This document shows positions 51-56,678 of a DNA stretch of 64,000 bases, piece after piece; positions within the stretch are counted from its first letter, which is position 1, and the number at the start of each line of letters is the position of its first letter. The notes beneath the pieces were generated by a model. That model searched no databases, was not told where the DNA came from, and was given only the letters and a program-made list of their open reading frames with translations. Source of the stretch: Candidatus Nomurabacteria bacterium (GTDB lineage Bacteria > Patescibacteriota > Minisyncoccia > Phycocordibacterales > UBA9973). The translations under genes and the position numbers were made by a program. The stretch spans positions 192,892 to 256,891 of the forward strand of contig JAHFNS010000002.1 in the NCBI GenBank assembly GCA_023267215.1, given 5' to 3'.

Positions 51-1343
51 TTATTTCAAGAAATTCTTATTTCTCAATTTCTTATGATAAGCAATAGCAA
101 AACGATGTGCCTCACTATTTGCTAACAGAATTTCTTTTTTGTATTTTTTTCCAAACGCCAGGCTTTGGGCGCTCTTAAAGCCTGGCGTTGAAGAGGAGGA
201 AAGAATAGCCTTTGCTTTGTGCCGATCATCTTTTAAGACAGAAAGAACCTCTATTTTTAAGCCCATTTTAGCCAAAACAGCCTTAGCTGTATTAATTTGG
301 GCTATTCCCCCATCTACAACGATAAGCCTTGGATATGACCATTCAGGGTGTAATAGACGCCTTTCTAGGACTTCTTTTAAAGCACCAGTGTCATTTGCAT
401 CGGTTTGAGTTCTGATTTTAAATTTCTTATATTCACTTTTTATTACTTCTCCATTTTCTACAACTACCATTACTCCAACCATATTTTTACCAGACATGTG
501 GGCTATATCGTATGCCTCAATGCGTGTTTCTCCTCCTTGTTGAGGAGGAGTGCCCTTTAGGGCGAGATGGTGATTTTTAGAATTATCACCCGGAACCCCC
601 TCTTCCACGAGAAGGGGAGCAAAAGAAGAATCTTGTTTTATCAAAGCCACATCATTAATATGTTGCAATGCAAAAAGTTGTCTTTTTATTTCCCCAGCTT
701 TTTCAAATTCTTTAACTTTCGCATACTCTTTCATTTCTTTTTTCAAATTACTCAAAATCTTTTTCTTCTTACCCAGAAAAAGCAACCTAATATTTTTGAT
801 ATTGTTTTTATTCTCTACTAAATATTCTGGCACTAATTTTATTTGTTTATAAAATTCATCTCTACCTTTTGTGCCTTTTTTATCATCAAAATAAGGAAAA
901 ATTTTCCTTACAATTTTCAAAGCCTCACGTAATTGATTACCATTTGGAAAAGGACCAAAGAAAGAATCATATTTTTCTTTGTTAAGTATCTTTCCTCGCA
1001 CTATGGCAACCTTTTTATCTTTGGTGATGCAAACATAATTAAAACTTTTATCAGATTTTTCTTTAGTATTATATTTAGGCTGATATTTTTTAATCAAAGA
1101 TGCTTCTAAAATAAGTGCTTCAAGCACACTATCCGTAACAACCCATTTTATTTTTTCTGCTTTAAAAATTAAATCTACTAAAAGAGGACCTCTGGTCTCT
1201 ATGAGATCTTTTCCAAAATAACTTTTGACCCTATCTTTAAGAGAAGTTGCCTTACCAATATATAAAATTTCTTTTCCTTTCTTAAAAAAGTAAACTCCGG
1301 GTTTATTTGGTAATTTTATTTTTTTTAGATATGAAATTTTCAT
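51..1343 (-). CDS. uvrC: Excinuclease ABC subunit C (UvrC), short form with an in-frame inserted hairpin element
   Basis: N-terminal GIY-YIG motif (GVYFFKKGKEILYIGKA...SYF). Endonuclease-domain motif ...IEAYDIAHMSG...V.VVV.NG. Directly downstream of uvrA and uvrB on the same strand. 430 aa, shorter than canonical UvrC. Confidence 0.85.
   Translation of the reverse strand: MKISYLKKIKLPNKPGVYFFKKGKEILYIGKATSLKDRVKSYFGKDLIETRGPLLVDLIFKAEKIKWVVTDSVLEALILEASLIKKYQPKYNTKEKSDKSFNYVCITKDKKVAIVRGKILNKEKYDSFFGPFPNGNQLREALKIVRKIFPYFDDKKGTKGRDEFYKQIKLVPEYLVENKNNIKNIRLLFLGKKKKILSNLKKEMKEYAKVKEFEKAGEIKRQLFALQHINDVALIKQDSSFAPLLVEEGVPGDNSKNHHLALKGTPPQQGGETRIEAYDIAHMSGKNMVGVMVVVENGEVIKSEYKKFKIRTQTDANDTGALKEVLERRLLHPEWSYPRLIVVDGGIAQINTAKAVLAKMGLKIEVLSVLKDDRHKAKAILSSSSTPGFKSAQSLAFGKKYKKEILLANSEAHRFAIAYHKKLRNKNFLK
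529..621. repeat. ~95-nt two-hairpin composite element in-frame in uvrC; homologous copy at 60729-60820 in murI
   Basis: About 80 percent nucleotide identity between the two copies. Both encode PLLVEEG..G...KNHLALKGTPPQ.GGE in the gene's reading frame. Confidence 0.8.
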
Positions 1344-4080: not shown

Positions 4081-6375
4081 CTATTTTTCTGACCTTTCTT
4101 TTAGAACAATTATTTCATCGCGTAAAATTGCAGCTGTTTCAAAATCTAATTCTTTCACTGCTTTATTCATTTCACGCTCTTTAATTTTAATTATTTTATC
4201 ATAAACAACTTTATTACGTTCTTCGTCTGAAAGCATTGTATTTTTTATTGAATCCGACTCATTTTTTCCTTTATTGCTTTTTTCTTTTTTAAATGCTTTT
4301 TTGAATAACTCAATATCAAGTGACAGTTCAGTATTCACAGCTTTCCCATGTTCACTTTCCATTTCTTGTGTGATGTCTTTAATATTTTTTATTATTGTTT
4401 TTGGAGTAATACCATTTTCTTTATTATAAGCAAGCTGAATATTTCTACGACGAGTTGTTTCTCCTATCGCTCTATCCATAGAACCAGTCATTGTGTCGGC
4501 ATAAAGAATAACCTTACCTTCACTATTACGAGCAGCACGGCCAATGGTCTGAATCAAAGCTGTTTCTGAACGCAAAAACCCTTCTTTATCGGCATCTAAT
4601 ATACCAATCAAGGCTACTTCTGGTAAATCTAATCCTTCCCTTAGTAAGTTTACTCCAACCAATACATCAAACTCTCCTCTTCTAAATTGAGTAAGAATTT
4701 TTATTCTATCTATTGTTTTAATATCACTATGAAGATATTCAGCTTTAATCTTTTTGTCTTTTAAATAAAGAGATAGATCCTCTGCCATTTTTTTTGTTAG
4801 TGTTGTCGCTAAAACACGGAAACCTTTCTTGATTGTTTTCTCTGCTTCTTTTATAAAATCCTGAATCTGCCCGGGATAGTACTCAGAGGAGTATTCGCTA
4901 CGACCAGATAAAACTTGCCCTTCCAAGATAGAGTGCGAACGACGGCGAGCACTATCCCGGGCAGATTCTTCCGAGACAGGCCTTACTGAAATTTCTGGAT
5001 CTACAAGACCAGTCGGGCGAATTATTTGTTCTACCATTTGTTCGCTTTGAGTACGTTCTTGTTCACTAGGCGTTGCGCTAGTATAAACAACAGGACCAAT
5101 CTTTTCACTAAATTCTTCATATTTTAAAGGCCTATTATCCTTTGCTGAAGGTAGACGAAAACCATATTCCACAAGGGTATTTTTACGAGAAGCATCGCCT
5201 GCATACATACCCTGCAATTGTGGTAAGGTTACATGTGATTCATCAATAATTGTTAAAAAGTCTGGTCCCCCCGAAGCTGGGCTTAAGGACTTCTGTTTTT
5301 TATTACCTGCCCCTAAGCCCAGCTTCGGGGAAACGGGAAAGTAAGAAAGCAATGTCTCTGGTGGTTCACCTTCTTTTTTATCTGATAAATGTCTAGAATA
5401 ATTTTCTATGCCATTACAATATCCAACTTCTTTTATCATCGCCAAATCATAGTTAGTTCTTCTCTTTATACGCTCTGCTTCCAATAATTTTCCTTCTTTT
5501 TCAAATTTCTTTAATTGTTTGTTTAATTCTTTTTTTATTTCTACTAATGCTTTTTTCTTTTTTACATCTTCGGTAATAAAATGTTTAGCTGGAAAAATAA
5601 AAATGTCTTTTTTTTCTTCAATTATTTGGGAAGAAATTGGATCAATTTTTTTTATTTCACTCAAAACCGAATTTAAAGCTGGGCTTTGGGGATTCTTAAA
5701 GCCCAGCTTTTGAATACCAAATTCTATTTGATACATCATTGTTTCAGAAACTGGCATAAATTCTACCCTAGAACCAATAGAACGAAAGGTCCCTGGGGTT
5801 AAATCAACATTCGTACGTTCAAAATGAATCGCAATTAACTTTTTCATTAAAGTCATCCTATCCATTTTCATTCCAACCTTTAACTTCAAATTAACCTTTT
5901 CATATTCTTCTGGTGAACCTAAACCATAAATACAAGAAACAGATGCAACAATTATCACATCACGTCTAGTAAGTAGGGCTTGTGTGGTAGCGTGACGCAA
6001 GCGGTCTATCTCTTTATTTATCTGTGCATCTTTTTCTATATAAGTATCTGATGCAGGCATATATGCTTCCGGCTGATAATAATCATAATAAGAAACAAAA
6101 TAATGCACAGCAGCTTCTGGAAAAAATTCTCGAAATTCTGAAGCAAGTTGTGCAGCTAGGGTTTTATTATGAGCTATTACAAGTGTTGGTTTATTATATT
6201 TTGCTATTACATTAGCAACAGTAAAAGTCTTACCCGTGCCTGTAGCGCCGATCAATGTCTGCTTATTCATTCCCTTCTTAAGTCCTTCTAAAAGCTTTAA
6301 AATAGCCTTCGGTTGGTCTCCTGCGGGCTTAAAAGGACTATGTAATTTAAAAATACTCCCTTGATTTTCTACCAT
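4081..6375 (-). CDS. uvrB: Excinuclease ABC subunit B (UvrB), enlarged by three in-frame hairpin insertions
   Basis: Helicase motif I GATGTGKTFT. YYDYYQPEAY beta-hairpin region. C-terminal UvrB/UvrC interaction motif. 764 aa versus ~660 typical. Confidence 0.95.
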   Translation of the reverse strand: MVENQGSIFKLHSPFKPAGDQPKAILKLLEGLKKGMNKQTLIGATGTGKTFTVANVIAKYNKPTLVIAHNKTLAAQLASEFREFFPEAAVHYFVSYYDYYQPEAYMPASDTYIEKDAQINKEIDRLRHATTQALLTRRDVIIVASVSCIYGLGSPEEYEKVNLKLKVGMKMDRMTLMKKLIAIHFERTNVDLTPGTFRSIGSRVEFMPVSETMMYQIEFGIQKLGFKNPQSPALNSVLSEIKKIDPISSQIIEEKKDIFIFPAKHFITEDVKKKKALVEIKKELNKQLKKFEKEGKLLEAERIKRRTNYDLAMIKEVGYCNGIENYSRHLSDKKEGEPPETLLSYFPVSPKLGLGAGNKKQKSLSPASGGPDFLTIIDESHVTLPQLQGMYAGDASRKNTLVEYGFRLPSAKDNRPLKYEEFSEKIGPVVYTSATPSEQERTQSEQMVEQIIRPTGLVDPEISVRPVSEESARDSARRRSHSILEGQVLSGRSEYSSEYYPGQIQDFIKEAEKTIKKGFRVLATTLTKKMAEDLSLYLKDKKIKAEYLHSDIKTIDRIKILTQFRRGEFDVLVGVNLLREGLDLPEVALIGILDADKEGFLRSETALIQTIGRAARNSEGKVILYADTMTGSMDRAIGETTRRRNIQLAYNKENGITPKTIIKNIKDITQEMESEHGKAVNTELSLDIELFKKAFKKEKSNKGKNESDSIKNTMLSDEERNKVVYDKIIKIKEREMNKAVKELDFETAAILRDEIIVLKERSEK
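4866..4966. repeat. ~100-nt MITE-like element with 19-bp terminal inverted repeats (TCTGCCCGGGATAGTACTC / GAGCACTATCCCGGGCAGA) inserted in-frame in uvrB
   Basis: Inverted repeat read directly. Encodes VRPVSEESARDSARRRSHSILEGQVLSGRSEYSSEYYPGQI. The CCCGGGATAG segment resembles the family-2 core. Confidence 0.7.
5267..5330. repeat. Family-1 hairpin element with 20-bp arms (CCCCGAAGCTGGGCTTAAGG / CCTAAGCCCAGCTTCGGGG) in-frame in uvrB
   Basis: Seen in sequence. Encodes PKLGLGAGNKKQKSLSPASGGP. Confidence 0.8.
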
Positions 6376-7772: not shown

Positions 7773-10238
7773 CTATTTAACCTCTCCAAAATTGTCCCCT
7801 GAACCAAAATGCACCAAGAGAGGAATATCTGTTTTGTATTTTAAATATGACCTTTCTAGGACCGTTTGCATGGCATTTTCTATTATTTTTTGAGCCTCTC
7901 CCAGCACTCCCTCCTCTACTTCATAAACTAACTCATCATGTATTTGTAAAACAAGATGTGCCTTATCCAATAATTTTGCTTTTTCTAAATCTTCTTCAGC
8001 ATACCTGATGGCAAGTTTTATTATATCCGCAGTAGCTGTGCCTTGGACGGGAGCATTTATAGCTGTACGTTCTGCCATATTTTTCAAAAATGGAATTCTA
8101 GAATTTATATTCGGAAAATACCTACGTCTACCAAAGAGAGTTTCGGTATAATTATTTTTCATTGCAAAAATTTTTACTCCTTCTAAATAATCCCGCAAGC
8201 CAGAAAATTGATTGAAATAATTGTCATAAAATTTTTGAGCTTCTTCTCTAGTACCTCCTAAACTTTTACGCAAAGCTGAAACCCCCATACCATAAATGAT
8301 ACCGAAATTTATAACTTTCGCTTTGCGACGCATTTCAGCATCTACTTTATCTATCGGTACACCAAAAACAAATGAGGCCACTCCCGCATGAATATCTTTG
8401 CCTTCGCGGAAAATTGCTGTCATCTTTTTATCTCCCGAAAGCATCGCTGCTACGCGAAGCTCTATCTGGCTATAATCAAAAGCCACGAGTTTGCATCCTT
8501 CCCCCGCGATAAAACCATTCCTTATTTTTTTACCTAGCTCTGTTTTGATTGGTAAATTTTGTAAATTTGGATCTTGAGAAGAAAATCTTCCTGTGGTCGT
8601 GCCATTTTGTAAAAATTTAGCATGTAAACGACCATCTTCTGCAATCATCTTTGGAATCACATCAATATAAGTAGAAAGCAATTTCTGTAATTCCCGATAA
8701 GAAAGAATTTCTTTTATAATTGGATTATCTTCTTCAAGTTCTTCTAAGACAGAAACTTTCGTGGAAAAAGAACCACTAGCATTTTTCTTTTTACTTGACT
8801 TCATTCCCATTTTCCCAAAAAGAACTTCTCCCATTTGTTTTGGAGAATTGATATTAAATTCTATCCCGGCTATTTTATATATTTTAGCTGTTAGTTTATC
8901 TAACTCTTGGTGATATTCTTTTGATATTTTTTCAAAATATTCCTTGTCTATAAGAATGCCCCACTCCTGCATCTCTTTGACTATTGGTATTATTGGCTTC
9001 TCTATCTCTTCATATACTTTTTCTAATCCTTTTTCTTTCAGCTTTTTAAAGATATATTCATAGGCTTTTTCAAAAGAATCGGCGTTGGCAAAATGCAAAA
9101 TATCATCCTGTGTAGGATTGGTTATATCTGAATTTATAAGCCAGAGGGCAATAGCTGCTTCTTGAAACTTTTCTTCAGAAATTTCTACAGAGGAAATCGG
9201 AGAAAGCAAAGTTTTGTCGGCCTCAAAAGACGAATCAAGAGAATTTTCTGATGGTCTGGCTGGGGGTCGGGGCCCCAGAGAACCGAGGACCTCAGAAAAT
9301 TCTGCTGGATTTGTCTTTTGACTATTGCTAAAAAAGTTTTTTAGACGCGCAAATAAACTTCTAAACTCAAATAAAGAAAAAGTTGTTTCAATTTTCTTCA
9401 AATCTGCATTTTCCCAAAAAGTTTTCTCTGGCAATTTGAAATCTACTGGGGCATCTGTCCTGATTTTTGCTAAAGTTTTGGAAAACAAAGCTTCTTCTTC
9501 ATTATTTTTTATTAATTCTAAAATTCTTGGAGAAATACCTTTTTTTATAAAAACACTCTCATCTTTTTTAATTTTTTTATATATTTCTTCTATCGTTCCA
9601 AAATTTACAATCAAATTAGTAGCCGTTTTTTCTCCAATACCTTTGATTCCAATAATATTATCAGACGGATCACCTCGTAAACCTTTATAATCTGGTAAAA
9701 GTTTCGGCTTAAATCCAAATCTATCCATAACTTTTTCTTCGTCATATAAAATCGTATCATTGATTCCCTTCTTCAGGGTGTACACTTGCACTTTTTTATC
9801 ATCTATTAATTGCATCGTATCCATATCGCCCGAGGCAATGACTATGTTTATGTTTTTATCTTTTTTTAATTTCTCAACTATCGTACCTAATACATCATCT
9901 GCCTCAAAGCCTGGAGCATCATAAATAGGCACGTTAAAGGCCTCAAAAATTTGCCTAGAATTTTTTAACTGCAAAACAAGAGCATCATCCGTCTTAGCCC
10001 TACCTGCTTTGTATTGGTCATAAGCTTCGTGTCTAAAGGTCTTTTGCGGTAAATCATAACAAGCCACGATATAATCAGGTTTTAAATCTGTAATTATCTT
10101 CATCAGCATTGTAGAAAGCCCATAAAGCGCCCCTGTCGGTTCGCCTTTAGAAGACAAAAATTCAGGCAACGCATGATAAGCCCGATGTATTATCGCATGA
10201 GAATCTAACAACACTAATGTCTTTTTGTCTTTAGTCAT
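7773..10238 (-). CDS. polA: DNA polymerase I (5'-3' exonuclease plus family A polymerase)
   Basis: N-terminal 5'-nuclease motifs (LVLLDSHAIIHRAYHAL). Polymerase motifs RRKAKVINFGIIYGMG and QIHDELVYEV. 821 aa. Confidence 0.95.
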   Translation of the reverse strand: MTKDKKTLVLLDSHAIIHRAYHALPEFLSSKGEPTGALYGLSTMLMKIITDLKPDYIVACYDLPQKTFRHEAYDQYKAGRAKTDDALVLQLKNSRQIFEAFNVPIYDAPGFEADDVLGTIVEKLKKDKNINIVIASGDMDTMQLIDDKKVQVYTLKKGINDTILYDEEKVMDRFGFKPKLLPDYKGLRGDPSDNIIGIKGIGEKTATNLIVNFGTIEEIYKKIKKDESVFIKKGISPRILELIKNNEEEALFSKTLAKIRTDAPVDFKLPEKTFWENADLKKIETTFSLFEFRSLFARLKNFFSNSQKTNPAEFSEVLGSLGPRPPARPSENSLDSSFEADKTLLSPISSVEISEEKFQEAAIALWLINSDITNPTQDDILHFANADSFEKAYEYIFKKLKEKGLEKVYEEIEKPIIPIVKEMQEWGILIDKEYFEKISKEYHQELDKLTAKIYKIAGIEFNINSPKQMGEVLFGKMGMKSSKKKNASGSFSTKVSVLEELEEDNPIIKEILSYRELQKLLSTYIDVIPKMIAEDGRLHAKFLQNGTTTGRFSSQDPNLQNLPIKTELGKKIRNGFIAGEGCKLVAFDYSQIELRVAAMLSGDKKMTAIFREGKDIHAGVASFVFGVPIDKVDAEMRRKAKVINFGIIYGMGVSALRKSLGGTREEAQKFYDNYFNQFSGLRDYLEGVKIFAMKNNYTETLFGRRRYFPNINSRIPFLKNMAERTAINAPVQGTATADIIKLAIRYAEEDLEKAKLLDKAHLVLQIHDELVYEVEEGVLGEAQKIIENAMQTVLERSYLKYKTDIPLLVHFGSGDNFGEVK

Positions 10239-21294: not shown

Positions 21295-21337
21295 AATTTT
21301 TCCCCTCTCCTTTATAAGGAGAGGGCTAGGGTGAGGT

Positions 21338-22435
21338 CTATCTATTCATTGGCATAATAAGATAAGTAAAAGAATTATCAGAAGCACCTGAAATGACCAT
21401 GGGTTTTGAAGGTTGATTTAATTTAATAGAAATACTATCTGAATTCATAGACTGGAAGCAATCTAAAAAATATTTATAATTAAATCCTAAATTTATTTCT
21501 TCCCCTTTTATAGCAGCATCTAAATATGTTTTATTTTCTCCAACATCGTTATTTTCAGAGGAAAGCTCAAAAACCTTTTCTTTGGGTGAAATTTTTAGAT
21601 TTATTTGATTAAATTTATCTGAAAAAATGTTTGAAATTTTAAGAGCATTTAAAAGATCTTGTTTTAAAACAACAGCTTCTGTTTTAAATTCTTTAGGTAT
21701 GATTTGTTTATAATCTGGGAAAATTCCATCGATCACCCTAGATGTAAGATAAACCCCATCAGAAGAAAAAGAAATTTGGTTTTTGTTAAAACAAACCTTA
21801 ACCACATCTTGTATTTCTCCAAAGATTCTCAATATTTCCGGTATATTTTTAAAAGGAATAAGTATTCCCCCAATCTCTTCTATCCCCTTAATTTTTACTT
21901 TTTTTTCTGCCAATCTAAAAGAATCCGTTGAAACAAAAATCAAATTATCTTCGTTGGAATATATATAAACACTAGAGATCTCTGGTTTTATATCAGAAAC
22001 AGAAGAACTATAATAAACACTTTTTATCCCTTCTATTAATTTCTTAGATTCCATCTCAAAAGTATTTCCTAAAACTTTTGGTATTGTTGGAAAATCATCA
22101 TACATCTGACCTTTTAATTTTATTCTATTTTTTTTAGTTTTAATTAGTAAATTTCCATCTTCACCATCAAGATAAATATTCTCATTTTGAAAAATATTAG
22201 AAAATATACCAACTAATATTGTGCCTGAAATGGCTACAACACCCTCTTTTTCAATTTTGGCTGGAATTTCTATCTCCACACCTAAACTCAAATTAGTAGA
22301 ACGAAGTTTTAATGTTTTTCCAGAAGCAATAAGTAATATAGAATTCAGAATAGGCAGGGTTAAATTTTTACCTGTTATTTTTTCTACTTGAATAATTGCA
22401 CTTTTTATTTTTTCCACATTGCATTCTAGTTTCAT
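21338..22435 (-). CDS. dnaN: DNA polymerase III beta sliding clamp
   Basis: 365 aa, three-domain clamp pattern, N-terminus MKLECNVEKIKSAI. Directly downstream of dnaA. Confidence 0.9.
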   Translation of the reverse strand: MKLECNVEKIKSAIIQVEKITGKNLTLPILNSILLIASGKTLKLRSTNLSLGVEIEIPAKIEKEGVVAISGTILVGIFSNIFQNENIYLDGEDGNLLIKTKKNRIKLKGQMYDDFPTIPKVLGNTFEMESKKLIEGIKSVYYSSSVSDIKPEISSVYIYSNEDNLIFVSTDSFRLAEKKVKIKGIEEIGGILIPFKNIPEILRIFGEIQDVVKVCFNKNQISFSSDGVYLTSRVIDGIFPDYKQIIPKEFKTEAVVLKQDLLNALKISNIFSDKFNQINLKISPKEKVFELSSENNDVGENKTYLDAAIKGEEINLGFNYKYFLDCFQSMNSDSISIKLNQPSKPMVISGASDNSFTYLIMPMNR

Positions 22436-22683
22436 ATGTTTATATATTATATATTTAATTTATTAATACTATTAAGACTGTGAATAAGTGGATAAATGAA
22501 TTTTATATATATAATATATGACTACTTTGTAATTTATTTTTATATTATATATATATTATCTTTTCCTAAAAATATATTTATTTTTTTTAAACACACTTTT
22601 GTTAATTTTTATACTATTTTATCAACAAGCCTTACTTTGATTAATACTACTTTATAACTATCTTATGATTTGTTTATCAACAG
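22436..22683. promoter_or_regulatory. Probable oriC: AT-rich unwinding region (TATATATA runs) plus DnaA-box-like 9-mers between dnaA and dnaN
   Basis: One-mismatch DnaA boxes GTGGATAAA (~22487), TGTGAATAA (~22478), TTATCAACA (~22650 and ~22672). Extreme AT content with alternating TA tracts. Confidence 0.6.
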
Positions 22684-24054
22684 CTATTTAAACAGGATTC
22701 TTATTTGTTCCAATTCTTGTAATAATTGTGGGTCGTTTTTAATATCTTCTTTTATTTTTAAATATGAATGTATGACTGTCGTGTGGTCTTTTCCTCCCAA
22801 TTTTTGTCCTATTAATGGATAAGAGACATTAAAATCTTCTCGAAGTAAATACATTACTACTTGTCTTGCTTTGACTATTTCTTTTCTTCGAGTTTTCTCA
22901 TAAATAGATGCTTCTTCTAGAGAATAATAATCGCTAACTGTTTTTACAACATCTTTTATTGCGACATTTTTTTTAGGTTTAATGTTATTTTTTAATAAAG
23001 CTTTAACTTCAGACACTGAAAGAACCTTATTTTTTAAGCGATATTGGCAGATTATAGTATTTAAACTACCTTCAAGTTCACGAATATTTCCTTGAATTGC
23101 CCCAGCGACGTATTCCATTATTTCTTGATCTAATTCTATTCCCGCTTCTCTTAGTTTCATTTTTAAGATTGCTAGACGAGATTCATATTCTGGCTCAGAA
23201 ACGTCTACAATCATTCCAGCTGCAAACCTAGATTTAAGTCGATCAGCTAATTCGGGAATATAATTTGGATGTTTGTCGGAAGAAAAGATGATTTGTTTGT
23301 TGTTTTCGTAGAAAGTGTTAAATGTGTGAAAAAGTTCTTCTTGAATTTTTTCCATTTTACCAATGAATTGGATATCATCTATAATCAAAAGATCATATTT
23401 ACGATATTTTTCCTTAAAAGAATTTGCTTTATTGTTTTGTAGAGAATTTATAAAATCAGTAGCAAATTTTTCTAAAGTTAAATAATGCACTTTTTTATTT
23501 GCATACTTGTCTTTTATAGAATTTCCGACAGCCTGGAGTAGGTGTGTTTTACCTAAGCCTGTTCCTCCGTAAACAAAAAATGGATTATATTTAGTACCAG
23601 GGTTTTCTATGATTGCCTGAGAAGCTGCATAAGCTAGCTCATTAAATGTTCCAACAATAAATGAATCAAAACGATAACGCGGATTTAAATTATCTTCTGG
23701 ATTGATATATAAGTCTCTTAAAGGTAATTCTTTATTTACATAAACTTCGTTAACCTTATTAACAGTCGGTTCTTGTTTTATAGCTTCTATTTTGGTAATA
23801 ACATACTCCACAGCTCTCATATTTTCATAGACATCAGCCATGGTTTTGGTTATTAATTTATGATATTTGTTTTTTAGCCAATCACGCACAAACTCGTTTG
23901 GCACTCCGACAAATATTATTCCCTCTTCTTCTTTTAGAATGCATGTATTTTTAAACCAAGTGCTAAAATTTGCCTTAGAAATACCTCCTTCTATTTCAAC
24001 TAAACAATTTTTCCACAGTTGCTTCGTATCCATGGGTAGGATTATACTACACAA
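22684..24054 (-). CDS. dnaA: Chromosomal replication initiator DnaA
   Basis: AAA+ Walker A GGTGLGKTHLLQAVGN. Walker B LLIIDDIQF. C-terminal DnaA-box binding HTH (GGKDHTTVIHS). Confidence 0.95.
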   Translation of the reverse strand: MCSIILPMDTKQLWKNCLVEIEGGISKANFSTWFKNTCILKEEEGIIFVGVPNEFVRDWLKNKYHKLITKTMADVYENMRAVEYVITKIEAIKQEPTVNKVNEVYVNKELPLRDLYINPEDNLNPRYRFDSFIVGTFNELAYAASQAIIENPGTKYNPFFVYGGTGLGKTHLLQAVGNSIKDKYANKKVHYLTLEKFATDFINSLQNNKANSFKEKYRKYDLLIIDDIQFIGKMEKIQEELFHTFNTFYENNKQIIFSSDKHPNYIPELADRLKSRFAAGMIVDVSEPEYESRLAILKMKLREAGIELDQEIMEYVAGAIQGNIRELEGSLNTIICQYRLKNKVLSVSEVKALLKNNIKPKKNVAIKDVVKTVSDYYSLEEASIYEKTRRKEIVKARQVVMYLLREDFNVSYPLIGQKLGGKDHTTVIHSYLKIKEDIKNDPQLLQELEQIRILFK

Positions 24055-24656: not shown

Positions 24657-24870
24657 CTTTTATCAAAAAATTATAGCCCCTCTTTTAAAAAAATTTTTAG
24701 AGAGTTTTGGGTTATTAAGAAACAATTCTTGCACTTTTTATCCTACTTGTTCAGAATATACCAGAGAAGCTATAAAAAAATATGGTATTTTAAAAGGTTC
24801 TTTTCTTGGTTTTTGGCGAATCCTTCGTTGTCATCCTTGGCAAAAGAATCACATTGACCCACTAAAGTAA
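24616..24870 (+). CDS. yidD: Membrane protein insertion efficiency factor YidD (true start probably an internal Met)
   Basis: Motif CTFYPTCSEYTREAI...RILRCHPW. Confidence 0.85.
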   Translation: MKMKLKIFSTKLISFYQKIIAPLLKKFLESFGLLRNNSCTFYPTCSEYTREAIKKYGILKGSFLGFWRILRCHPWQKNHIDPLK

Positions 24871-24972
24871 AAAACTAGAGTAGTGCTTTTTCACGGCTCG
24901 CACTCGAACCTGACAATGGTTTACAAAACTAATATTGCGTATGCCGAAAAAAGCACTACTCTAGTTTTTTTA
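24868..24972. repeat. Conserved-core hairpin element, copy 1
   Basis: Stem arms AAAAACTAGAGTAGTGCTTTTT / AAAAAGCACTACTCTAGTTTTT enclose the conserved ~55-nt core (tcACGGCTCGCACTCGAACCTGAcAATGGTTTACaAAacTAATATTGCGTATGccg). Sits directly after the yidD stop. Confidence 0.7.
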
Positions 24973-25769: not shown

Positions 25770-26300
25770 ATGAATAAAACAGAGATACAAAATTTAATAA
25801 AAGAACTTATAGATAAAACTACCATATCAGTAAATAAAATCTCTATTGATGAAGATAGGCCAACAACCTTAAGTGGAGATGAAAATAATACCATTTGGTT
25901 TGGAGTTGAAGTGAGTCAGCCACATTTCTTTTGGGATCGTGGTGGTGAAGCGCTTTTTGCCTTAAATCACATTGCTCGTAAAATAATTGAAAACAAAACT
26001 TCCCCTAAGCTGGGCTTAGGAGAGGGTTCTATTAAGCCTAGCTTGGGGGCACAAGGGTTAGGAATTTTAATAGACATAAATGGCTTTCAAAAAAAACGCA
26101 TTGAAAACATTCACGCGATAGCCCATATGATGGCTGAACGGGCTAGGTATTTTAAGTCAAATATAGAAATAGATCCAATGCCCGCTTTTGAACGTAGAGT
26201 AGTGCATGAATTTTTATCTAATGCTACTGATCTAAAAACTGAATCAGAGGGTGAAGGATACGCTCGTCGAGTAGTTATCAAATACACAGGGACAATTTAG
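25770..26300 (+). CDS. jag: Jag/KhpB R3H-domain RNA-binding protein
   Basis: C-terminal R3H-like ERRVVHEFLS. Conserved position after yidC. Carries an in-frame family-1 hairpin insertion (SPKLGLGEGSIKPSLGAQ). Confidence 0.75.
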   Translation: MNKTEIQNLIKELIDKTTISVNKISIDEDRPTTLSGDENNTIWFGVEVSQPHFFWDRGGEALFALNHIARKIIENKTSPKLGLGEGSIKPSLGAQGLGILIDINGFQKKRIENIHAIAHMMAERARYFKSNIEIDPMPAFERRVVHEFLSNATDLKTESEGEGYARRVVIKYTGTI

Positions 26301-26304: not shown

Positions 26305-26384
26305 CACCTCATCCCCCGCCTTCTCTTTGTAAAGTAGAAGGAGCAAAAACCCTCTCCTTTATAAGGAGAGGGTAGGGTGAGGTT
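26305..26384. repeat. Composite structured element: outer stem ACCTCATCCC/GGGTGAGGT enclosing hairpin CCTTCT...AGAAGG and family-3 hairpin CCCTCTCCTTTATAAGGAGAGGG
   Basis: Seen directly in the sequence, between convergent jag and the first gene of the island. Near-identical family-3 unit at 21302-21337 and 44484-44521. Confidence 0.6.
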
Positions 26385-26386
26385 CT

Positions 26387-27697
26387 TTATTTTAATTTTA
26401 ACCCCCAAAGGTAAGAATCTTTTTTGTTTATAAAAAATAGAAAGTTTTGCCCTTCATCTAGATTGAGTCTCGTTCCATCTACTTCTTCTCCGCTTATTTG
26501 AGTTGGGTCTCCTATCAATGTCGTATTACCACTTGTGATATCAATTTTCCATATTTGATCAGAAAAAGAAACTTCCCCTTGGTACCAAGAGTCCGGATAT
26601 ATTTCATTATCTATATATTTAGGGACAGCGCAATATAGGACATCACTTAATGCACCCCAGACACATTTTTCCGACAGAGTTTTAACTCCAAGTGCAATTG
26701 GTTCTCTTGTTTCAGTGTCAAAAATATTTAAAGATAAATTATTATCACTATATAGAACTAATTTACCGTCTGGGCTTGTAAGTGTTGTTAATCCATTTAT
26801 TTCACCTAAAACTTTATTGAGATCTTTTTTATTTGGATTGATAGCATACATAAATCCTCTGACATTTCCAGAAGGTTTGGTAGTGACTGTAATTAAATTC
26901 TTATTAGTCCAAGAAGATAGCCATTCAGTAAATGGAGAATCAAAAATTTGAATTTTTGTACTGCTTTGTAAATCAAAAGTTACTCCAACCCCATTGTCCC
27001 CTATATTAAATAAATAAAATATTTTTGAAGAATCAGAAGAGACACTCATGTCAGAAATATTTTCTGGCAAAAAAGAGCCTTTTACTTCATTGTTTCCTAT
27101 AGAATCTGCCCCCAAGTATTCTTTTTGTAGCATACCTACATAAGTTTCTATTGTTTTATTATCATCTTTCAAGTAACGCATGATAACAGAATCACCCTTA
27201 TTTCCAAAATATGCTTCATGTACTTTTGGCACTACGGTATTTGAAAATTTTCTCTCGTCTATTTTATCAGCAAAGGTTTGATAGATATTTCCATTTGATT
27301 TGTTTACATACCTCAAAGCAGGAGCGAATTCTGTGGGAGGGATAGCAGAGGAGGCCTTACTTTCTCCTGCTGGAGAAGGCAAGGCCTCTTCTGCTTTAAA
27401 TCTCTCTTTCATAAATACTCCATATCCTGCCACAGGGAAACTAGAAATCTTTTTAAATTTACCATATGAAGCACTATTATCTCCTGCCCCTACATATCCA
27501 GAGACATCTGAAGGAGGTGTCGGATTTGGTGTTGTGGTTTTACTTTTTCCGAATGGTAAGAAGTTTGCAAAAAAGTTTGTGCCAGTTACTGTGCCCCCAT
27601 TTTGATCTTTAGGTTGGAAAAAATAGAGAAAACCAAAAACACCAACTATGATGACTACAAGGATTATTATAAATAAAATGATGTTTCTTTTTGACAT
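26387..27697 (-). CDS. Secreted/membrane-anchored hypothetical protein (beta-rich; last gene of the T4SS-like operon)
   Basis: N-terminal TM/signal anchor (IILFIIILVVIIVGVFGFLYFF). Contains an in-frame GC-rich hairpin insertion (ALLSPAGEGKASSA...). Confidence 0.45.
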   Translation of the reverse strand: MSKRNIILFIIILVVIIVGVFGFLYFFQPKDQNGGTVTGTNFFANFLPFGKSKTTTPNPTPPSDVSGYVGAGDNSASYGKFKKISSFPVAGYGVFMKERFKAEEALPSPAGESKASSAIPPTEFAPALRYVNKSNGNIYQTFADKIDERKFSNTVVPKVHEAYFGNKGDSVIMRYLKDDNKTIETYVGMLQKEYLGADSIGNNEVKGSFLPENISDMSVSSDSSKIFYLFNIGDNGVGVTFDLQSSTKIQIFDSPFTEWLSSWTNKNLITVTTKPSGNVRGFMYAINPNKKDLNKVLGEINGLTTLTSPDGKLVLYSDNNLSLNIFDTETREPIALGVKTLSEKCVWGALSDVLYCAVPKYIDNEIYPDSWYQGEVSFSDQIWKIDITSGNTTLIGDPTQISGEEVDGTRLNLDEGQNFLFFINKKDSYLWGLKLK

Positions 27698-27704: not shown

Positions 27705-29036
27705 TTAAGGATATCTATAATATTTTATTCTAGATTTAAGTTTATCTGTTAATGGTCTTATTTGTGTAGGACTATTTGTATTTTGAGTGTCTAATACTTG
27801 TCCATCTTTTACATAAATCATTGTGTGCCCATCTGGTTCGCCATTTTCATTCGCTTTCCATCCCAACAAATCACCTGTATTTATTTTTGAATAATCAAAA
27901 GTTTTTCCATCTATTTTTGTAGTATTACCAGTTGAAAATATTTCAGCACTATTATTCCCCGGGCTTCCCAACCCAGCACATACATATACTTGAGAGACAA
28001 ATGAAGAACAATCAACATAAATAGTTTTACTATCTGTAGTGTTTCTTTTTTCTTTACTATATTCTGTTTGTGGTATGAATAGTTTTCCAATTGGCAAGAT
28101 AGCTTCTTTTCCACCTGTTGCATCGCAAGTGATGCCAAAATCATTTTTTAATATTGTTTTATCTATTGGTTTAAAAGGCAAAGATGATTCACCCCCGAGA
28201 CTTGTGATGGTTATATTAGCCGTTGGCATTTTTAAACATACATTGAGTAATGCCGGATTTAGAGTATTTAAAATGGCATAGGTGCCTAAGGTTATTACAA
28301 GACCCAATATAGCATGTGTAATTCTTTCCTTTCCCGCTTCTTTTGAGGAAATGAGCTCACTGGTCATATATTCCAATCCACCTATTACTATCATCACCAT
28401 AGCGAGGACTGCTGATATACCAATGATTAACTTAACCATTATGTTTAAATAATTTCCGAAAGGACAAGGATTGGTAGTCTCATTATATTGAGTATCGATT
28501 GATTCTAGCCCTGGTAAAGGAGCGAGTGGGGTGTATACAGTCTCTGTGGGGGTTATACAGGTTGTTTTATCAGCACTTGGTATTTCTGGTGATGTACACT
28601 TAAGTTGGGTTATTGGAGCTGGTGTTTGTGATGTAGGTGTTGGTGTGGAGGGAGTTGTTGGAGTAGCTGTATTAGTAGCACCCCATTTATTCACTGTGAC
28701 ATCTACCCATTTTTTTATTGAGTGATCTTTAAAATCCGTACAAGACATTGAGAAGTTTGTTGTTTCATAAAGAGAAGGAGTACTACTTCCCGAACTAGTA
28801 TAATTTCCAAAATCAGCATTTCCTGTATTTGATGTGGTTGTTATATTACAAAAAGTATAACCAGATATTGTCCATGTTATGTTTGTTTTATCACCAGATT
28901 TTATAGTTGAAGGTTCAGCTGTAATAGATGCAGAGAAAGTATTGTCTGCGAAGGTTTGCTGAAACGGAATAAAAAAGCTAAATAAAAATATTGTTAGATA
29001 TGAGAGGGCTATTATTTTTTTAAAAATATTTTTCAT
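27705..29036 (-). CDS. Membrane-anchored cell-wall hydrolase with C-terminal NlpC/P60 domain (functional analogue of VirB1/PrgK in Gram-positive T4SS)
   Basis: Signal peptide, secreted N-domain, Pro/Thr-rich linker (TPTTPSTPTPTSQTPAPI), internal TM segment. C-terminal NlpC/P60 catalytic pattern (CSSFVSQVY...GDLLGW...H.MIYV). Confidence 0.6.
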   Translation of the reverse strand: MKNIFKKIIALSYLTIFLFSFFIPFQQTFADNTFSASITAEPSTIKSGDKTNITWTISGYTFCNITTTSNTGNADFGNYTSSGSSTPSLYETTNFSMSCTDFKDHSIKKWVDVTVNKWGATNTATPTTPSTPTPTSQTPAPITQLKCTSPEIPSADKTTCITPTETVYTPLAPLPGLESIDTQYNETTNPCPFGNYLNIMVKLIIGISAVLAMVMIVIGGLEYMTSELISSKEAGKERITHAILGLVITLGTYAILNTLNPALLNVCLKMPTANITITSLGGESSLPFKPIDKTILKNDFGITCDATGGKEAILPIGKLFIPQTEYSKEKRNTTDSKTIYVDCSSFVSQVYVCAGLGSPGNNSAEIFSTGNTTKIDGKTFDYSKINTGDLLGWKANENGEPDGHTMIYVKDGQVLDTQNTNSPTQIRPLTDKLKSRIKYYRYP

Positions 29037-30067: not shown

Positions 30068-31918
30068 CTAACTTTTTTCTTCTTCTTTCGATTTTTCCAA
30101 ATCCTCCTTGGCTTTTTTGATAGATAAAATTTGAGACGGATCGGAAGTTATGATTTGATCTTCAGTGTAAGAAGAGATGACCTTGATTGCAACGTGTTTT
30201 AGTCCAGCAAAGAATATTCCTTCACCTACTCCGGATTCTAAAAGTAAATATTTTTCTTCATCAGTCAAATTAAATGTTTTTTGTAAAATATCTATGGTGG
30301 TTGGAGATTGCTTTAAGAGTAGTTGAATAGAAGAGTTGGTGATGATAGGGATACCATAGGGAGATTTCATAAAATCAGCTGCGTCTTGGGTGATAGTGGA
30401 AAGTCCTAAATAATATTTTCTTCCTCGCTTGGCGATAGAATAAAGGAATGAAGCAGTATCTTCAGATTTCATCATCCACCAAGCTTCATCAACAACCAGA
30501 AGACGTTTCTTTAAATTTTTTCGGATAGTTATCCAAATATAATGCATTACAATATACATTGCCACGGGTTTTAATTCATCTTCCATGTCACGAACCGAAA
30601 ACACTACAAACTTTTTATTTATATCTACATTGGAAGGCCTGTTAAGAAAAGTAGACCAAGAGCCCTTGGTATATTTGACCAATCTCTGAATGACGGAGTC
30701 ACTTCCCTCCATTCCACCTAACACCATTTCGAAATCTGAAAGAAGAGGCGGTTCTATGTTTGAAAAATCTGAATCAGGAGTAATATCTTTCATTGCATAG
30801 GTTTCAGATATTGCACGATCCACCATAGAATCTTCTTCTGGAGTTAGTCCACCCAACATCAATCTGAAAAGTCCAACTAGATTTATAATATTTGAACGAA
30901 GGACATCTTCAGCAGATTCATCTTCACGTGGGATAGGTAGATCAAAGGGGTTGATGTGATGATCGGAAGAAAGTGAAATATTGAAATATCTTCCTCCCAC
31001 AGCTTCAGCTAAATATTCATATTCCCTTTCTGGGTCTATGACAATAATATCTATATCAAACATTAAAGACCGAATAATTTCCAGTTTGGTGGCATAACTT
31101 TTTCCTGAACCAGATTTTGCGAATGTCACAGAATTATAATTTTCCAAAGAAAATCTATCAAAGATAACCAAAGAAGAATTGTGTCTATTTACTCCATAAA
31201 GTATTCCCATTTCAGAAGTAAGATCAAAAGAAATAAATGGGAAAATACTTGAAAGGGGCTCCGAATTTAATTTTTGGTGAATACTTAAAAGGTCGTTGCC
31301 GATAGGCATTACGCTTTTAAAACCTTCTTCTTGCTGAAAAAGAGCTGGTTTAATATAGATTAATTTTGATTCGAGAATTGATTTTATTTCATTTTCAACT
31401 TTATAAAGTTCCATCTCATTGTCAGCATAGATGGTAATATAAATGCTTACATCAAACATTTTTTGTTGCGCTTGAATCAAACTGTCACGAAGTCCTTCCA
31501 AATCTTGATAAGCAGTATCGAGCATTGGATCACGCACCATTCCCTTTCTTTCTCGCACATTTATCTGGCTTTGTACTTCGGCGACTTTTTTTTGAAATTG
31601 TCTTAAGGCAAGAGATGTATCTACTGGATGAATAAAAATTGAAACATCAAAAACTTTATCCAAATTGATTACAGGAGAAAACCAATTATCGGAAAGAAAT
31701 CTAGGATAGGAAATAATGAAAAAAGTACGAGCAATTTTATCACCCAAATTTATAGATTTTGATTCGATCTTTAAGGCAGATGGAGCAATAATATCTTGAA
31801 GTTCTAGTTTAGCCGATTCATATATTTCTTCAGGTAATACTGGAAGAACCGAAGCATTTACTCCTTGTATTTTTTCTTCTTTTTTGTTTTTTCCAAGTAA
31901 TTTATCAAAAATTGACAT
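30068..31918 (-). CDS. VirB4/TrbE/CagE-family type IV secretion ATPase (ATPase domain)
   Basis: Walker A FAKSGSGKSYATK. Walker B-like LLVVDEAWWMM (the DEAW of VirB4s). C-terminal conserved region. Confidence 0.8.
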   Translation of the reverse strand: MSIFDKLLGKNKKEEKIQGVNASVLPVLPEEIYESAKLELQDIIAPSALKIESKSINLGDKIARTFFIISYPRFLSDNWFSPVINLDKVFDVSIFIHPVDTSLALRQFQKKVAEVQSQINVRERKGMVRDPMLDTAYQDLEGLRDSLIQAQQKMFDVSIYITIYADNEMELYKVENEIKSILESKLIYIKPALFQQEEGFKSVMPIGNDLLSIHQKLNSEPLSSIFPFISFDLTSEMGILYGVNRHNSSLVIFDRFSLENYNSVTFAKSGSGKSYATKLEIIRSLMFDIDIIVIDPEREYEYLAEAVGGRYFNISLSSDHHINPFDLPIPREDESAEDVLRSNIINLVGLFRLMLGGLTPEEDSMVDRAISETYAMKDITPDSDFSNIEPPLLSDFEMVLGGMEGSDSVIQRLVKYTKGSWSTFLNRPSNVDINKKFVVFSVRDMEDELKPVAMYIVMHYIWITIRKNLKKRLLVVDEAWWMMKSEDTASFLYSIAKRGRKYYLGLSTITQDAADFMKSPYGIPIITNSSIQLLLKQSPTTIDILQKTFNLTDEEKYLLLESGVGEGIFFAGLKHVAIKVISSYTEDQIITSDPSQILSIKKAKEDLEKSKEEEKS

Positions 31919-52750: not shown

Positions 52751-52856
52751 AAAAAACCAAGCTAATATTTTTTCATGACTCGCACTCGAACCTGACAATG
52801 GTTTACGAATGTAATATTGCGTATGTCAAAAAAAGTATTAACTTGGCTTTTTTGTT
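52749..52856. repeat. Conserved-core hairpin element, copy 2
   Basis: Arms CCAAGCTAATATTTTTT / AAAAAAGTATTAACTTGG enclose core tcATGACTCGCACTCGAACCTGACAATGGTTTACGAATGTAATATTGCGTATGTCa. Sits directly after the M23 peptidase stop, between convergent genes. Confidence 0.7.
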
Positions 52857-56575: not shown

Positions 56576-56678
56576 AAATACAAAAATAGATACTTTTTCA
56601 CGGCTCGCACTCGAACCTGAAAATGGTTTACGAAACTAATATTGCGTATGCCAAAAAAAGTATCTATTTTTGTATTTT
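56573..56678. repeat. Conserved-core hairpin element, copy 3
   Basis: ~25-bp arms AAAAATACAAAAATAGATACTTTTT / AAAAAGTATCTATTTTTGTATTTTT enclose core tcACGGCTCGCACTCGAACCTGAAAATGGTTTACGAAACTAATATTGCGTATGCCa. Sits directly after the cca stop. Confidence 0.7.

Follow-up and report, generated by a model that had tools for sequence, protein, structure and literature searches.

The segment shared by uvrC and murI in the window, the 64,000-nucleotide stretch of DNA analysed here, probably belongs to a family of small, non-autonomous palindromic elements of Patescibacteria (Candidate Phyla Radiation, CPR) that resemble the Rickettsia palindromic elements (RPE) and would be mobile, translated and constrained in place. 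The family appears to be new; its kind is already known from Rickettsia, and it is placed there by analogy.

Two copies of the element in the window

A segment of uvrC (527-621, minus strand) aligned with murI (60732-60822, plus strand) over 91 nt without gaps at 81.3% identity, in the same orientation and reading frame relative to the host gene. Within the 64-kb window the pair had an E-value of 1.8e-20 by BLASTN and 1.6e-14 by single-sequence nhmmer, the runner-up matches had E > 0.1, and no third copy was found by nhmmer. The two segments are also the longest inverted-repeat pair of the window (I1). The initial annotation had located both segments, had given them the same orientation and had estimated their identity by eye at ~80 percent, all of which was confirmed by the alignment. 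It had further described a segment of ~95 nt with two hairpins; the segment is real, but its hairpin core measures 88-89 nt, and folding gave four hairpins (H1-H4) in each copy. The features are:

51-1343, minus strand: host gene uvrC, 430 aa, with GIY-YIG, UVR motif and RNase H-like endonuclease domain
527-624, minus strand: element copy 1, in uvrC, encoding UvrC P243-E272
617-530, minus strand: hairpin core of copy 1, 88 nt
624-618 and 529-527, minus strand: short, AT-rich terminal tails of copy 1, TTTTGCT and AAA
595-620, minus strand: hairpin H1 of copy 1, CCCCTTCTC / GAAGAGGGG, with one bulge, based on folding and the consensus structure
569-590, minus strand: hairpin H2 of copy 1, GGTGAT...ATCACC with an AT-rich loop, shorter than the family consensus
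552-563, minus strand: hairpin H3 of copy 1, GCCC TAAA GGGC
530-550, minus strand: hairpin H4 of copy 1, CTCCTCCT CAACA AGGAGGAG
60276-61217, plus strand: host gene murI, glutamate racemase, 313 aa
60731-60822, plus strand: element copy 2, in murI, encoding MurI P153-E182
60731-60819, plus strand: hairpin core of copy 2, 89 nt, plus an AAA tail
60731-60753, 60757-60785, 60786-60797 and 60799-60819, plus strand: hairpins H1, H2, H3 and H4 of copy 2

The uvrC product matched the Pfam domains GIY-YIG, UVR and UvrC_RNaseH_dom, and the murI product matched Asp_Glu_race. The inserted UvrC peptide (P243-E272) is PLLVEEGVPGDNSKNHHLALKGTPPQQGGE and is followed by TRIEAYDIAHMSG, which puts it directly before the endonuclease motif as originally reported, while the MurI peptide (P153-E182) is PLLVEEGAGGGDLKKNHLALKGTPPQKGGE; both translations are exact matches to the peptides quoted in that report. 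The uvrC element occupies the linker joining the UVR helices to the endonuclease domain, and the murI element the loop joining helix 134-151 to strand 188-193. The minimum free energies (MFE) of the two window copies were -40.5 and -50.4 kcal/mol, with z-scores of -4.0 and -4.9 against shuffled sequences, and only one frame was open in both copies.

Distribution and host genes of the family

An exact 23-nt pattern from the 3' end of the element was searched in 185,579 species genomes. It matched 18 loci; every one of them came from a CPR-type MAG and carried a full-length copy. A 22-nt 5' pattern matched at least 120 loci in metagenomes, among which were 60 distinct full-length copies. Further copies, which the initial annotation had suggested looking for in the rest of the genome, were found in other Patescibacteria genomes and metagenomes. 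The full-length copies (~80 in total) have sharp boundaries and four conserved hairpins, and they occupy more than 20 sites across at least 17 gene families. The hosts, which are unrelated to one another, are UvrA, UvrB (three sites), UvrC, PolA, TopA (two sites), LigA, MnmA (two sites), TsaD, KsgA, RNase R, Tgt, PheS, PurD, a PaaX-like protein, FtsK, MurB, an FAD oxidase and MurI.

In the first set, 20 of 21 copies lay within long open reading frames (ORFs), in identical frame. The second set of 60 copies comprised 38 in sense orientation, 2 antisense and 20 without a long ORF; one of the antisense copies (L065) is positioned upstream of the actual start of ftsK. About one third of the copies are intergenic. 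Nearly all genic copies are read in a single stop-free sense frame, and their length variants differ by multiples of three nucleotides. The copy number per genome appears to be low, with two copies in 64 kb here and at most five in 11 kb elsewhere, the latter at locus L067. A profile of the 30-aa peptide found a single match (P0001) among 5.8 billion proteins, which is not evidence of rarity: MurI and UvrC of the window are themselves in that database, and the low yield reflects the word index used. Phages were rejected as a vector: the pattern scans of 2.9 million viral contigs gave 0 and 1 matches, and the sole match (L025) is not a full copy.

Architecture and structural conservation

The unit is ~90-105 nt long and consists of H1-H4 between imperfect terminal inverted repeats (TIRs) of ~16 nt. 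Its ends are TTTTnCT-CCCCTCCTT and AAGGAGGAG-AnAAAA, the reverse complement of the right end being TTTTnT-CTCCTCCTT. Information content was at background beyond ~7 nt outside the hairpin core, only the CT beside H1 was well conserved, and no inverted repeats longer than the ~16-nt TIR stood above permuted flank pairs. Because the stems are homopyrimidine/homopurine runs, neither of their strands can contain a stop codon. Loops and junctions are therefore the only places where stops can arise, and one sense frame stays open over the whole unit.

In the consensus structure 98.4% of 1288 pair cells were paired, compared to 53-70% in slid controls, and three pairs showed compensatory changes. Stems had a variability of 0.02-0.07 and loops one of 0.16-0.29, and the effect of codon position was weak. 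With the structure fixed, the sense strand had ~117 G.U cells and ~7 A.C cells; strand-specific folding was nevertheless rejected, as the MFE did not differ significantly between strands (sense -52.5 vs antisense -51.0 kcal/mol, p = 0.09). With strand MFEs this alike, folding as RNA, as single-stranded DNA or as a cruciform is indistinguishable. Only tRNAs reached the gathering threshold of Rfam 15 in the window, and the best Rfam match on the element was sX13 on the antisense strand (23.9 bits vs a gathering score of 50). An internal start from the AAGGAGG of H4 was also rejected: a suitably spaced in-frame ATG or ATT was seen by eye in MnmA, TopA and UvrC and was absent in most hosts.

Empty, filled and alternatively filled sites

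Alignment to orthologues, which the initial annotation had proposed as a check, revealed insert-free forms of both window proteins: MurI of 264-272 aa (L020/L021) and UvrC of 389-397 aa. The UvrA encoded in the window itself is empty at the element site, and site B is empty in the UvrB of L002 and L008. Close relatives differ in which sites are occupied, and in other lineages the same sites are filled by unrelated element families.

In AlphaFold2 models, MurI 152-183 was predicted as coil with pLDDT < 50 (mean of the whole model 82.8), and UvrC 230-270 likewise as coil with pLDDT < 50, with the UVR helices on one side, the endonuclease domain on the other and both flanking domains confident. 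The predicted disordered loops coincide with the insert boundaries in both proteins, and the proposed check by structure prediction showed each insert as a disordered loop of a fold that is confident elsewhere. Inserts in other hosts were found at Pfam domain borders. These models suggest that the insert is compatible with the host fold as a surface loop. As the catalytic motifs of the window MurI and UvrC are also intact, both enzymes are probably still functional, as had been presumed. In the solved structure of MurI 1b73 (254 aa), residues 126-133 correspond to the loop with the MurI insert. In sequence, the insert does separate the two catalytic Cys motifs. By the domain limits that we assume, however, it falls inside the C-terminal domain and not, as had been described, at the junction of the two half-domains.

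Evidence on the proposed mobility and mechanism

The initial annotation had considered the shared segment mobile rather than ancestral. The number of sites in unrelated gene families and the empty orthologous sites support this, with the nuance that the element is vertically inherited at several sites, where it has diverged less than the host gene, and that neither a target-site duplication nor a transposase was found. Target-site duplications of 4 nt or more were absent: the longest direct match between the two flanks averaged 3.79 nt, compared to 3.73 +/- 0.12 in permuted pairs, in a test whose reach ends above duplications of 2-3 nt. The apparent duplications at L018 (ATAAAACT) and L016 (AATGCA) fall inside the permutation distribution. 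No transposase was present among the window ORFs scanned or at the locus with five copies, and ~0.9 Mb of collected loci contained no larger element with these ends. A pair of A and B parts 1.5 kb apart at L026 (for the two parts see below) was rejected as a parent element, since these are separate inserts in PheS and PheT. Hairpin elements of the IS200/IS605 type (PATEs) are defined by subterminal hairpins, no TIR, no target-site duplication, a fixed 4-5-nt target beside the left end, and strand specificity. Hairpins at both ends and the lack of a detected duplication would fit such an element; the TIRs, the conservation of no more than CT beside H1 and the folding energy without strand preference would not, and the circle-junction-like permuted form is at most suggestive.

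We propose that the element would be copied by a trans-acting activity, presumably through transposition, and that copies could land anywhere. In these gene-dense genomes, a copy in an essential gene would survive only if it lay in the open frame and at a tolerant position, either a linker between domains or a loop at the protein surface. The ribosome may then read through the surviving copies and add a ~30-residue, Gly/Pro-rich disordered peptide, as the maintained ORFs and the indels in multiples of three suggest. Since permissive loops are few, several unrelated element families would insert at the same sites, disappear from them and fill them again.

Conservation in place

In murI orthologues, which were picked by protein similarity and blind to the element, the element was 95-97% identical and the coding sequence 77-82%. 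The insert junctions were shared, which points to a single old insertion. In pattern-ascertained orthologous pairs the element was 87-90% identical and the host 75%, and the element was the higher in 34-36 of 37 pairs. Between L007 and L013, the element was identical at 88 of 88 positions and the adjacent flanks at ~80%. The element is vertically inherited at several sites and changes more slowly than the host gene. Ascertainment bias was reduced by masking both search patterns and removed by the blind choice of MurI orthologues, and the signal was kept in both cases. Homologous recombination between orthologous sites was rejected as a general cause, as flank identity was no higher beside the element. 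Neutral junk would behave otherwise, and pure selfishness does not explain near-unchanged resident copies in a diverging host gene. In the proposed mechanism these copies may reflect purifying selection on arm pairing in place or homogenization by gene conversion.

A possible but doubtful alternative treats the element as an intragenic nucleic-acid structure that is selected in place as a cis signal in CPR information-processing genes, or else as a mover with a circular intermediate. The first form builds on the element changing ~5x more slowly than essential host genes; its arms would be copies of two sequences, the Shine-Dalgarno sequence and the 3' tail of 16S rRNA, and it might act, for example, as an inter-domain ribosome pause or as a site for a lineage-specific factor. 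In the second form, a putative hairpin-recognising recombinase would repeatedly target the same loops.

We consider it unlikely that the four-hairpin structure is domesticated and primarily functional, with the folded mRNA or single-stranded DNA serving the cell through inter-domain ribosome pausing, mRNA protection, binding of a CPR-specific protein or masking of the Shine-Dalgarno-like AAGGAGG tracts that it contains. On the origin of the copies such a reading partly agrees with our explanation; it differs in why they persist. The slow change of the old murI insertion, the excess of element over flank identity in nearly all orthologous pairs, the kept stems with free loops and compensatory changes, and the frequent position at domain borders would all be accommodated by such a function. 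The intergenic third of the copies, the patchy sites that unrelated elements fill, the folding energy without strand preference and the lack of an Rfam family match argue against it, as does the window uvrC copy, which is visibly decaying (bulged H1, short H2, 77% identity to the orthologous copy).

Half-elements and a permuted form

The element can be divided into two modules of ~45 nt each, A (H1 + GGGGGTGGTRAT) and B (ACCACCTC + H3 + H4), and both solo A and solo B copies were found. The A-B order is by far the commonest, with ~60 copies recovered through an A-only pattern and 18 of 19 through a B-only pattern. At one TopA site, a solo B is present in L115 and L064 and an A-B copy in L007 and L013. 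The reverse order B-A, a circular permutation, was found in PheS (L026/L057), L073 and L136, and a single orthologous site carries A-B in L030 and B-A in L136. The B-A form holds the exact end-to-end A-B junction, GGAGGAGAAGA joined to TTTTTCTCCCC, as expected from a tandem dimer or the circle junction of a single unit. A circle junction of the unit would read GGAGGAGA...TTTTnCTCCCC.

The half-elements and the permuted form leave the mobile unit uncertain. They could be read as two independent ~45-nt hairpin modules that land together through complementary ends forming H2. We regard this as rather improbable: it fits the solo copies, the TopA site and the swapped order, but A-B predominates, B-A carries the junction of an A-B unit, and hairpin-mediated deletion can also yield solo modules. 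For a mobile palindromic unit, the permuted, circle-junction-like form is suggestive as to mechanism.

Nature of the conserved entity

Translation of the same nucleotides follows at least three combinations of frames, NHHLALKGTPPQKGGE / SPPRPSGTPPQKGGE / ITTSPFGHSSSTRRR and PLLVEEG / PSLSRRG / SPPCGGG. As different copies use different frames, the conserved entity is the DNA or RNA and not the peptide. It is highly improbable that the insert is a functional 30-residue motif or linker that many proteins, DNA-repair enzymes above all, have acquired, for instance to bind a common partner: although ...NHLALKGTPPQKGGE is well conserved across many copies and the hosts are often DNA or RNA enzymes, conservation follows the stems and not the codon positions, intergenic and antisense copies exist, and the peptide is predicted to be disordered.

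Removal at the RNA or translation level, by an intron-like process or by a ribosomal bypass ('hop') as in T4 gene 60 and the yeast mitochondrial byps, is barely credible. GC-rich hairpins in AT-rich coding sequence do recall mitochondrial GC clusters and byps, but genic copies almost always keep one stop-free frame and vary by multiples of three, which a skipped element would not need, and no Rfam intron or ribozyme matched. Chance similarity or an assembly artefact, for which nothing was found in favour, is refuted by the BLASTN value in the window (2e-20) and by the same element in independent NCBI, JGI and ENA assemblies.

Significance and comparison with known systems

In-frame palindromic elements have so far been known almost only from Rickettsia, and full-text searches of a paper collection found no description of one in CPR. 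The phenomenon now extends to CPR, which make up a very large, uncultured portion of the bacterial tree. Public examples run into the hundreds and cover many element families; at the same loops, alleles are empty, filled or alternatively filled, and a permuted form hints at mechanism. Together these make a much larger data set for studying the movement and the persistence of such elements. The inserts explain much length variation among CPR housekeeping proteins and call for caution by annotators and structure predictors. That a 90-nt insert is more conserved than the uvr, mur and top genes is a testable puzzle.

Yeast mitochondrial GC clusters and byps are GC-rich, hairpin-forming mobile elements of a very AT-rich genome that also occur within protein-coding genes. 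The ribosome skips byps, for which an open frame is not required, whereas the frame of the CPR element is kept open and probably read through.

REP/BIME sequences are extragenic, 20-40 nt long, carry a GTAG/CGTC tag and are associated with RAYT transposases (PMC3733652). The CPR element likewise has GC-rich imperfect palindromes, mosaic units and a modular hairpin arrangement; in contrast, it is mostly intragenic, ~90 nt long and lacks GTAG/CGTC at the hairpin feet. Palindromic amphipathic repeat coding elements (PARCELs) are tandem repeats that form the bulk of surface proteins (PMC2996958). They share palindromic coding repeats, translatability of both strands and horizontal distribution with the CPR element, which differs in occurring as single inserts in enzymes.

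Bacterial miniature elements (MITEs; Correia, ERIC, RUP and cyanobacterial MITEs) are small, multi-copy, bear TIRs, do not code for a transposase and are occasionally found in-frame within genes (PMC10969869). The CPR element agrees in all of these traits, TIRs included, but has no detected target-site duplication of 4 nt or more and no known parent IS, and in-frame genic copies are its majority and the exception in MITEs.

The closest likeness is to the RPE (Ogata et al., 2000, Science 290:347, as cited in PMC10969869). These are short palindromic repeats of ~100-150 bp, in-frame in many unrelated housekeeping genes and also intergenic. The genomes that carry them are small, reduced and AT-rich. 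Each family has its own conserved peptide, which is considered to be compatible with the fold of the host protein, and no transposase is known for them. The CPR element corresponds in each of these respects except length, being shorter (~90 bp): it is a palindromic unit with defined ends, in-frame in unrelated genes, in a loop predicted to be fold-compatible, and insert-free orthologues exist. The likeness is one of kind, and RPE occur in Alphaproteobacteria. All 23-nt matches were of CPR type, with none from Rickettsiales among the 185,579 species genomes, and membership of RPE-1 to RPE-10 is therefore very unlikely. The CPR element further differs in its four separate hairpins with homopurine/homopyrimidine arms, its half-modules and permuted form, its apparently low copy number per genome and its resident copies, which are clearly more conserved than their hosts.

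The uvrC and murI copies

The GC-rich segment that the initial annotation had reported in uvrC (ORF 51-1343, minus strand) and murI (ORF 60276-61217, plus strand) was recovered as an ungapped alignment of 91 nt with 81% identity on the coding strands. Nucleotide-level alignment, chosen beforehand as the test that could refute the pair, gave BLASTN E = 1.8e-20 and nhmmer 1.6e-14 within the window, where all other matches had E > 0.1. The segment is the longest inverted-repeat pair of the window and a sharp GC island on a background of ~33% G+C; no third copy was found within the window. Pfam confirmed the identity of both host genes, and the peptides quoted earlier for the two inserts agreed with the computed translations. 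Folding corrected the number of hairpins per copy from two to four (H1-H4), with energies of -40.5 and -50.4 kcal/mol (z = -4.0 and -4.9). The frame in use is the only one of six that stays open in both the uvrC and the murI copy. A XerC/D-like tyrosine recombinase (62189-63157) is encoded two genes from murI, and this synteny is conserved in loci L020-L023.

AlphaFold2 models of both proteins were built with orthologue alignments. The MurI model, a confident fold (mean pLDDT 82.8), had pLDDT < 50 and no secondary structure at residues 152-183, and the element occupies residues 153-182. UvrC was likewise unstructured at residues 230-270, which link the UVR helical hairpin to the endonuclease domain, with the element at 243-272. 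On these models both inserts would form external, disordered loops; an external loop was what the initial annotation had expected. The catalytic motifs of MurI were invariant in the orthologue comparison.

A family of elements in CPR

An exact scan for CTCGCCCTAAARGGCACTCCTCC across 185,579 species, each represented by a single genome, returned 18 loci, all in MAGs of CPR (Patescibacteria) type, including Nomurabacteria, Paceibacterota, 'Saccharibacteria' and Minisyncoccia, and each of the 18 carried a full-length copy. Metagenomes were scanned with GGAGGGGGYWGGGGGTGGTRAT, a pattern from the other half of the element, which gave at least 120 loci with at least 60 distinct full-length copies in addition to partial ones. 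The copies lose similarity abruptly at either boundary, and beyond the hairpin core nothing except TTTTnCT (left) and AnAAA (right) was informative. The unit therefore has imperfect terminal inverted repeats of ~16 nt.

A single palindrome (CCYCTCCTT / AAGGAGRGG) underlies both H1 and H4, in two versions. The stems are homopyrimidine/homopurine, so that TAA, TAG and TGA are impossible on either strand, which explains the frequent compatibility of the element with ORFs. In the element arms (e.g. at 60731-60753 and 60799-60819), the pyrimidine arms (CCUCCUU) are identical to the core of the general 16S rRNA 3' tail and the purine arms (AAGGAGG) to the Shine-Dalgarno consensus. The 3' arm of H2, AUCACCACCUC, is similar to GAUCACCUCC. 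In L001, an 857-bp ENA contig, 378-536 contains the element and, immediately behind it, the beginning of another copy in a different frame (SSPPCGGGVRGGV), a tandem arrangement.

Host genes and reading frame

In the first set of copies, 20 of 21 lay within long ORFs and shared a common frame with the peptide P[LS]Lx[EK]EGxGGG..K.H.LALKGTPPQKGG[ED]. Among the matches listed for the second set, 38 were in sense orientation within ORFs of 120 aa or longer, 2 were antisense, one of them upstream of the real ftsK start, and 20 had no long ORF. The hosts, confirmed by Pfam or tblastn, were:

DNA enzymes: UvrA, UvrB (three sites), UvrC, PolA, TopA (two sites), LigA, FtsK
RNA and tRNA enzymes: RNase R, MnmA (two sites), TsaD, Tgt, KsgA, PheS
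Others: MurB, MurI, PurD, PaaX-like regulator, FAD oxidase

The insert mostly sits at a Pfam domain border; for instance, it separates the M domain from the C domain in MnmA and the 5'-3' exonuclease from the polymerase domain in PolA, and it precedes the RNase H domain in UvrC. Genic copies of unequal length differ in steps of three nucleotides.

Other repeat families and features of the window

The window is densely colonised by small hairpin elements, and the following further repeat families and inserts were noted:

155-188, 2920-2953, 5676-5709: 34-nt hairpin family D10 (AAGCCGGGCTTTGG...TTAAAGCCCGGCTT)
4917-4986: in-frame uvrB insert, EESARDSARRRSHSILEGQVLSGRSEYSSE
5258-5341 (uvrB), 26006-26051, 56987-57032: hairpin family D18/I2, AAGCTGGGCTTAGG...CCTAAGCCCAGCTT
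9247-9298 (polA), 47022-47073 (UvrD-like helicase), 55879-55930 (CCA/poly(A) polymerase): 52-nt GC-rich in-frame family D4
24862-24971, 52744-52853, 56569-56678, also L023 3001-3906: 110-nt intergenic family D1 (...TTTTTCACGGCTCGCACTCGAACCTG...)
21303-21350, 26350-26397, 44484-44531; 33268-33295, 33713-33740, 55147-55174; 32665-32722; 44832-44867; 55137-55241: further small hairpin families (CCCTCTCC-loop-GGAGAGGG; CCCCCTG-loop-AGGGGG)

The three excision-repair genes each contain D10 in-frame and in one orientation: uvrC (STPGFKSAQSLAFG), uvrA (a 15-residue peptide) and uvrB (QKLGFKNPQSPALN); close orthologues lack the uvrA and uvrB copies. Two D4 copies translate as ...FS.VLGS.GP.P... and the third is read on the opposite strand. 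The further small families are partly intergenic and partly in-frame, and one member lies in a KsgA-like gene (44267-45178) whose orthologue in L098 bears the studied element.

The window also contains dnaN and dnaA (21338-24054), and the replication origin therefore probably lies close by. Type IV secretion families are matched by ORFs 27705-29036 and 30068-31918 (T4SS pilin plus NlpC/P60; TraG-like P-loop ATPase). Two tandem 159-nt units with 92% identity (38702-39019) lie within a 769-aa ORF (37974-40283), a repeat-containing and probably surface protein with weak fn3-like matches only.

Empty and otherwise filled sites

The earlier reading of the element as mobile rather than ancestral is supported, with corrections, by orthologous sites that are empty or otherwise filled. 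In MurI, orthologues of the same clade that are empty at the site have 264-272 aa and five close relatives carry the element, while many others hold, at exactly the same place, short remnants or a different 30-aa insert (LLLFHGSHSNL...AYAEKSTNSFS) that belongs to the D1 family. The insert region has 50 residues in the window MurI versus 7 in solved MurI structures. Among 120 UvrC orthologues, the linker between UVR motif and endonuclease domain is empty in the forms of 389-397 aa and holds the studied element in only four; elsewhere at least six other recurrent insert types are found. The closest relatives of the window UvrC (72-78% identity) are without the element.

A UvrA site is filled in L006, L009, L010 and L012 and empty in the window; L010 is the outgroup, which implies that the window lineage lost the element or that gains were repeated. 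The two UvrB sites that bear the element in other genomes are taken up by two other families in the window. The insert at 4917-4986 occupies the site of the element in L002/L008 and looks like another mobile in-frame family. The uvrB copy of D18/I2 (PVSPKLGLGAGNKKQKSLSPASGG) lies at the exact site that carries the element in L003 and is empty in L002/L008; a second D18/I2 copy is in-frame within ORF 25770-26300. A peptide related to the 4917-4986 insert (RHSHSVLEGQxxSGRSEDSS) was seen in the UvrC linkers of the orthologous proteins P0139, P0203 and P0215.

Conservation of the element

RNAalifold recovered the four hairpins from 46 distinct copies, with 98.4% of the pair cells paired versus 53-70% with slid partners, and compensatory changes were present at three pairs (64/73, 77/95 and 80/92). 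In canonical-frame copies, variability was 0.02-0.07 in stems and 0.16-0.29 at unpaired positions with a weak third-position effect, and different copies translate identical element nucleotides in different frames. The constraint thus acts on the nucleic acid and not on the peptide. The sense and antisense strands fold about equally well, which does not distinguish an RNA from a DNA form.

At orthologous filled sites the element was 89.7% identical versus 75.4% for the flanking coding sequence (300 nt on each side), and was the more conserved in 36 of 37 pairs. Masking of the two search patterns gave 86.9% and 75.4% (34 of 37 pairs). In the cleanest case, the elements in murI of the window, L022 and L024 are 95-97% identical (87 nt) versus 77-82% for the murI coding sequence, a comparison free of ascertainment bias because the orthologues were chosen by protein similarity, and their common junctions indicate one old insertion. 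Even between unrelated genes and genomes, copies retain ~81-86% identity. Not all copies follow this slow change: the window uvrC copy has a bulged H1, a shortened H2 and only 77% identity to the orthologous copy in L015. A possibility is that conservation in place reflects function or an unusual recombination mechanism.

Half-elements and possible mechanism

Module A (H1 and the 5' arm of H2) and module B (the 3' arm of H2, H3 and H4) each occur alone, and a solo B was found at a TopA site that elsewhere holds the full element. A circularly permuted B-A form occurs in PheS and elsewhere. At one orthologous site the order is A-B in L030 versus B-A in L136, and the L136 form has an exact end-to-end unit junction:

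L030 ~4929: normal order
L136 ~621; L026 2630-2731; L073 5906-6003: permuted form (H3-H4 ahead of H1, the unit being opened within the H2 loop; junction GGAGGAGAAGA|TTTTTCTCCCC)

A tandem dimer could give rise to these forms, as could a circular intermediate or halves that move on their own. Module A (CCCCCTCCTATTTTAGGAGGGGGCAGGGGGTGGTAAT then CACTTCCTCGCAGA) was also seen in high-GC metagenome contigs (up to 63% G+C), mostly from soil and probably not CPR (L034, L045, L068, L102, L114, L122), where two inverted copies lie close together; these may represent a relative of REP/BIME type, or the G-rich search pattern may have matched them by coincidence.

Neither target duplications of at least 4 nt at the element copies nor a transposase within the window were found, the collected loci showed no longer element with the same ends, and phage carriage was essentially nil in a scan of viral contigs. 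The many unrelated sites, the intergenic copies, the single surviving frame, the location in disordered loops, and the orthologous sites that are empty or alternatively filled fit a mobile element that is non-autonomous and whose copies are filtered by selection, as Ogata et al. (2000) proposed for the Rickettsia palindromic elements (RPEs), in the summary given in PMC10969869.

Comparison with known systems

No Rfam family matched the element, and full-text literature searching for such elements in CPR/Patescibacteria returned nothing relevant. The phenomenon is real and widespread in CPR and apparently undescribed there. The element differs from classical MITEs in showing no target-site duplication of 4 nt or more, and it is without the defining features of REP/BIME. 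It shows those that define RPE-like in-frame palindromic elements and works as RPEs do. Membership of the Rickettsia families themselves is very unlikely. The in-frame elements of CPR offer rich testable material, but their concept was anticipated by RPEs.
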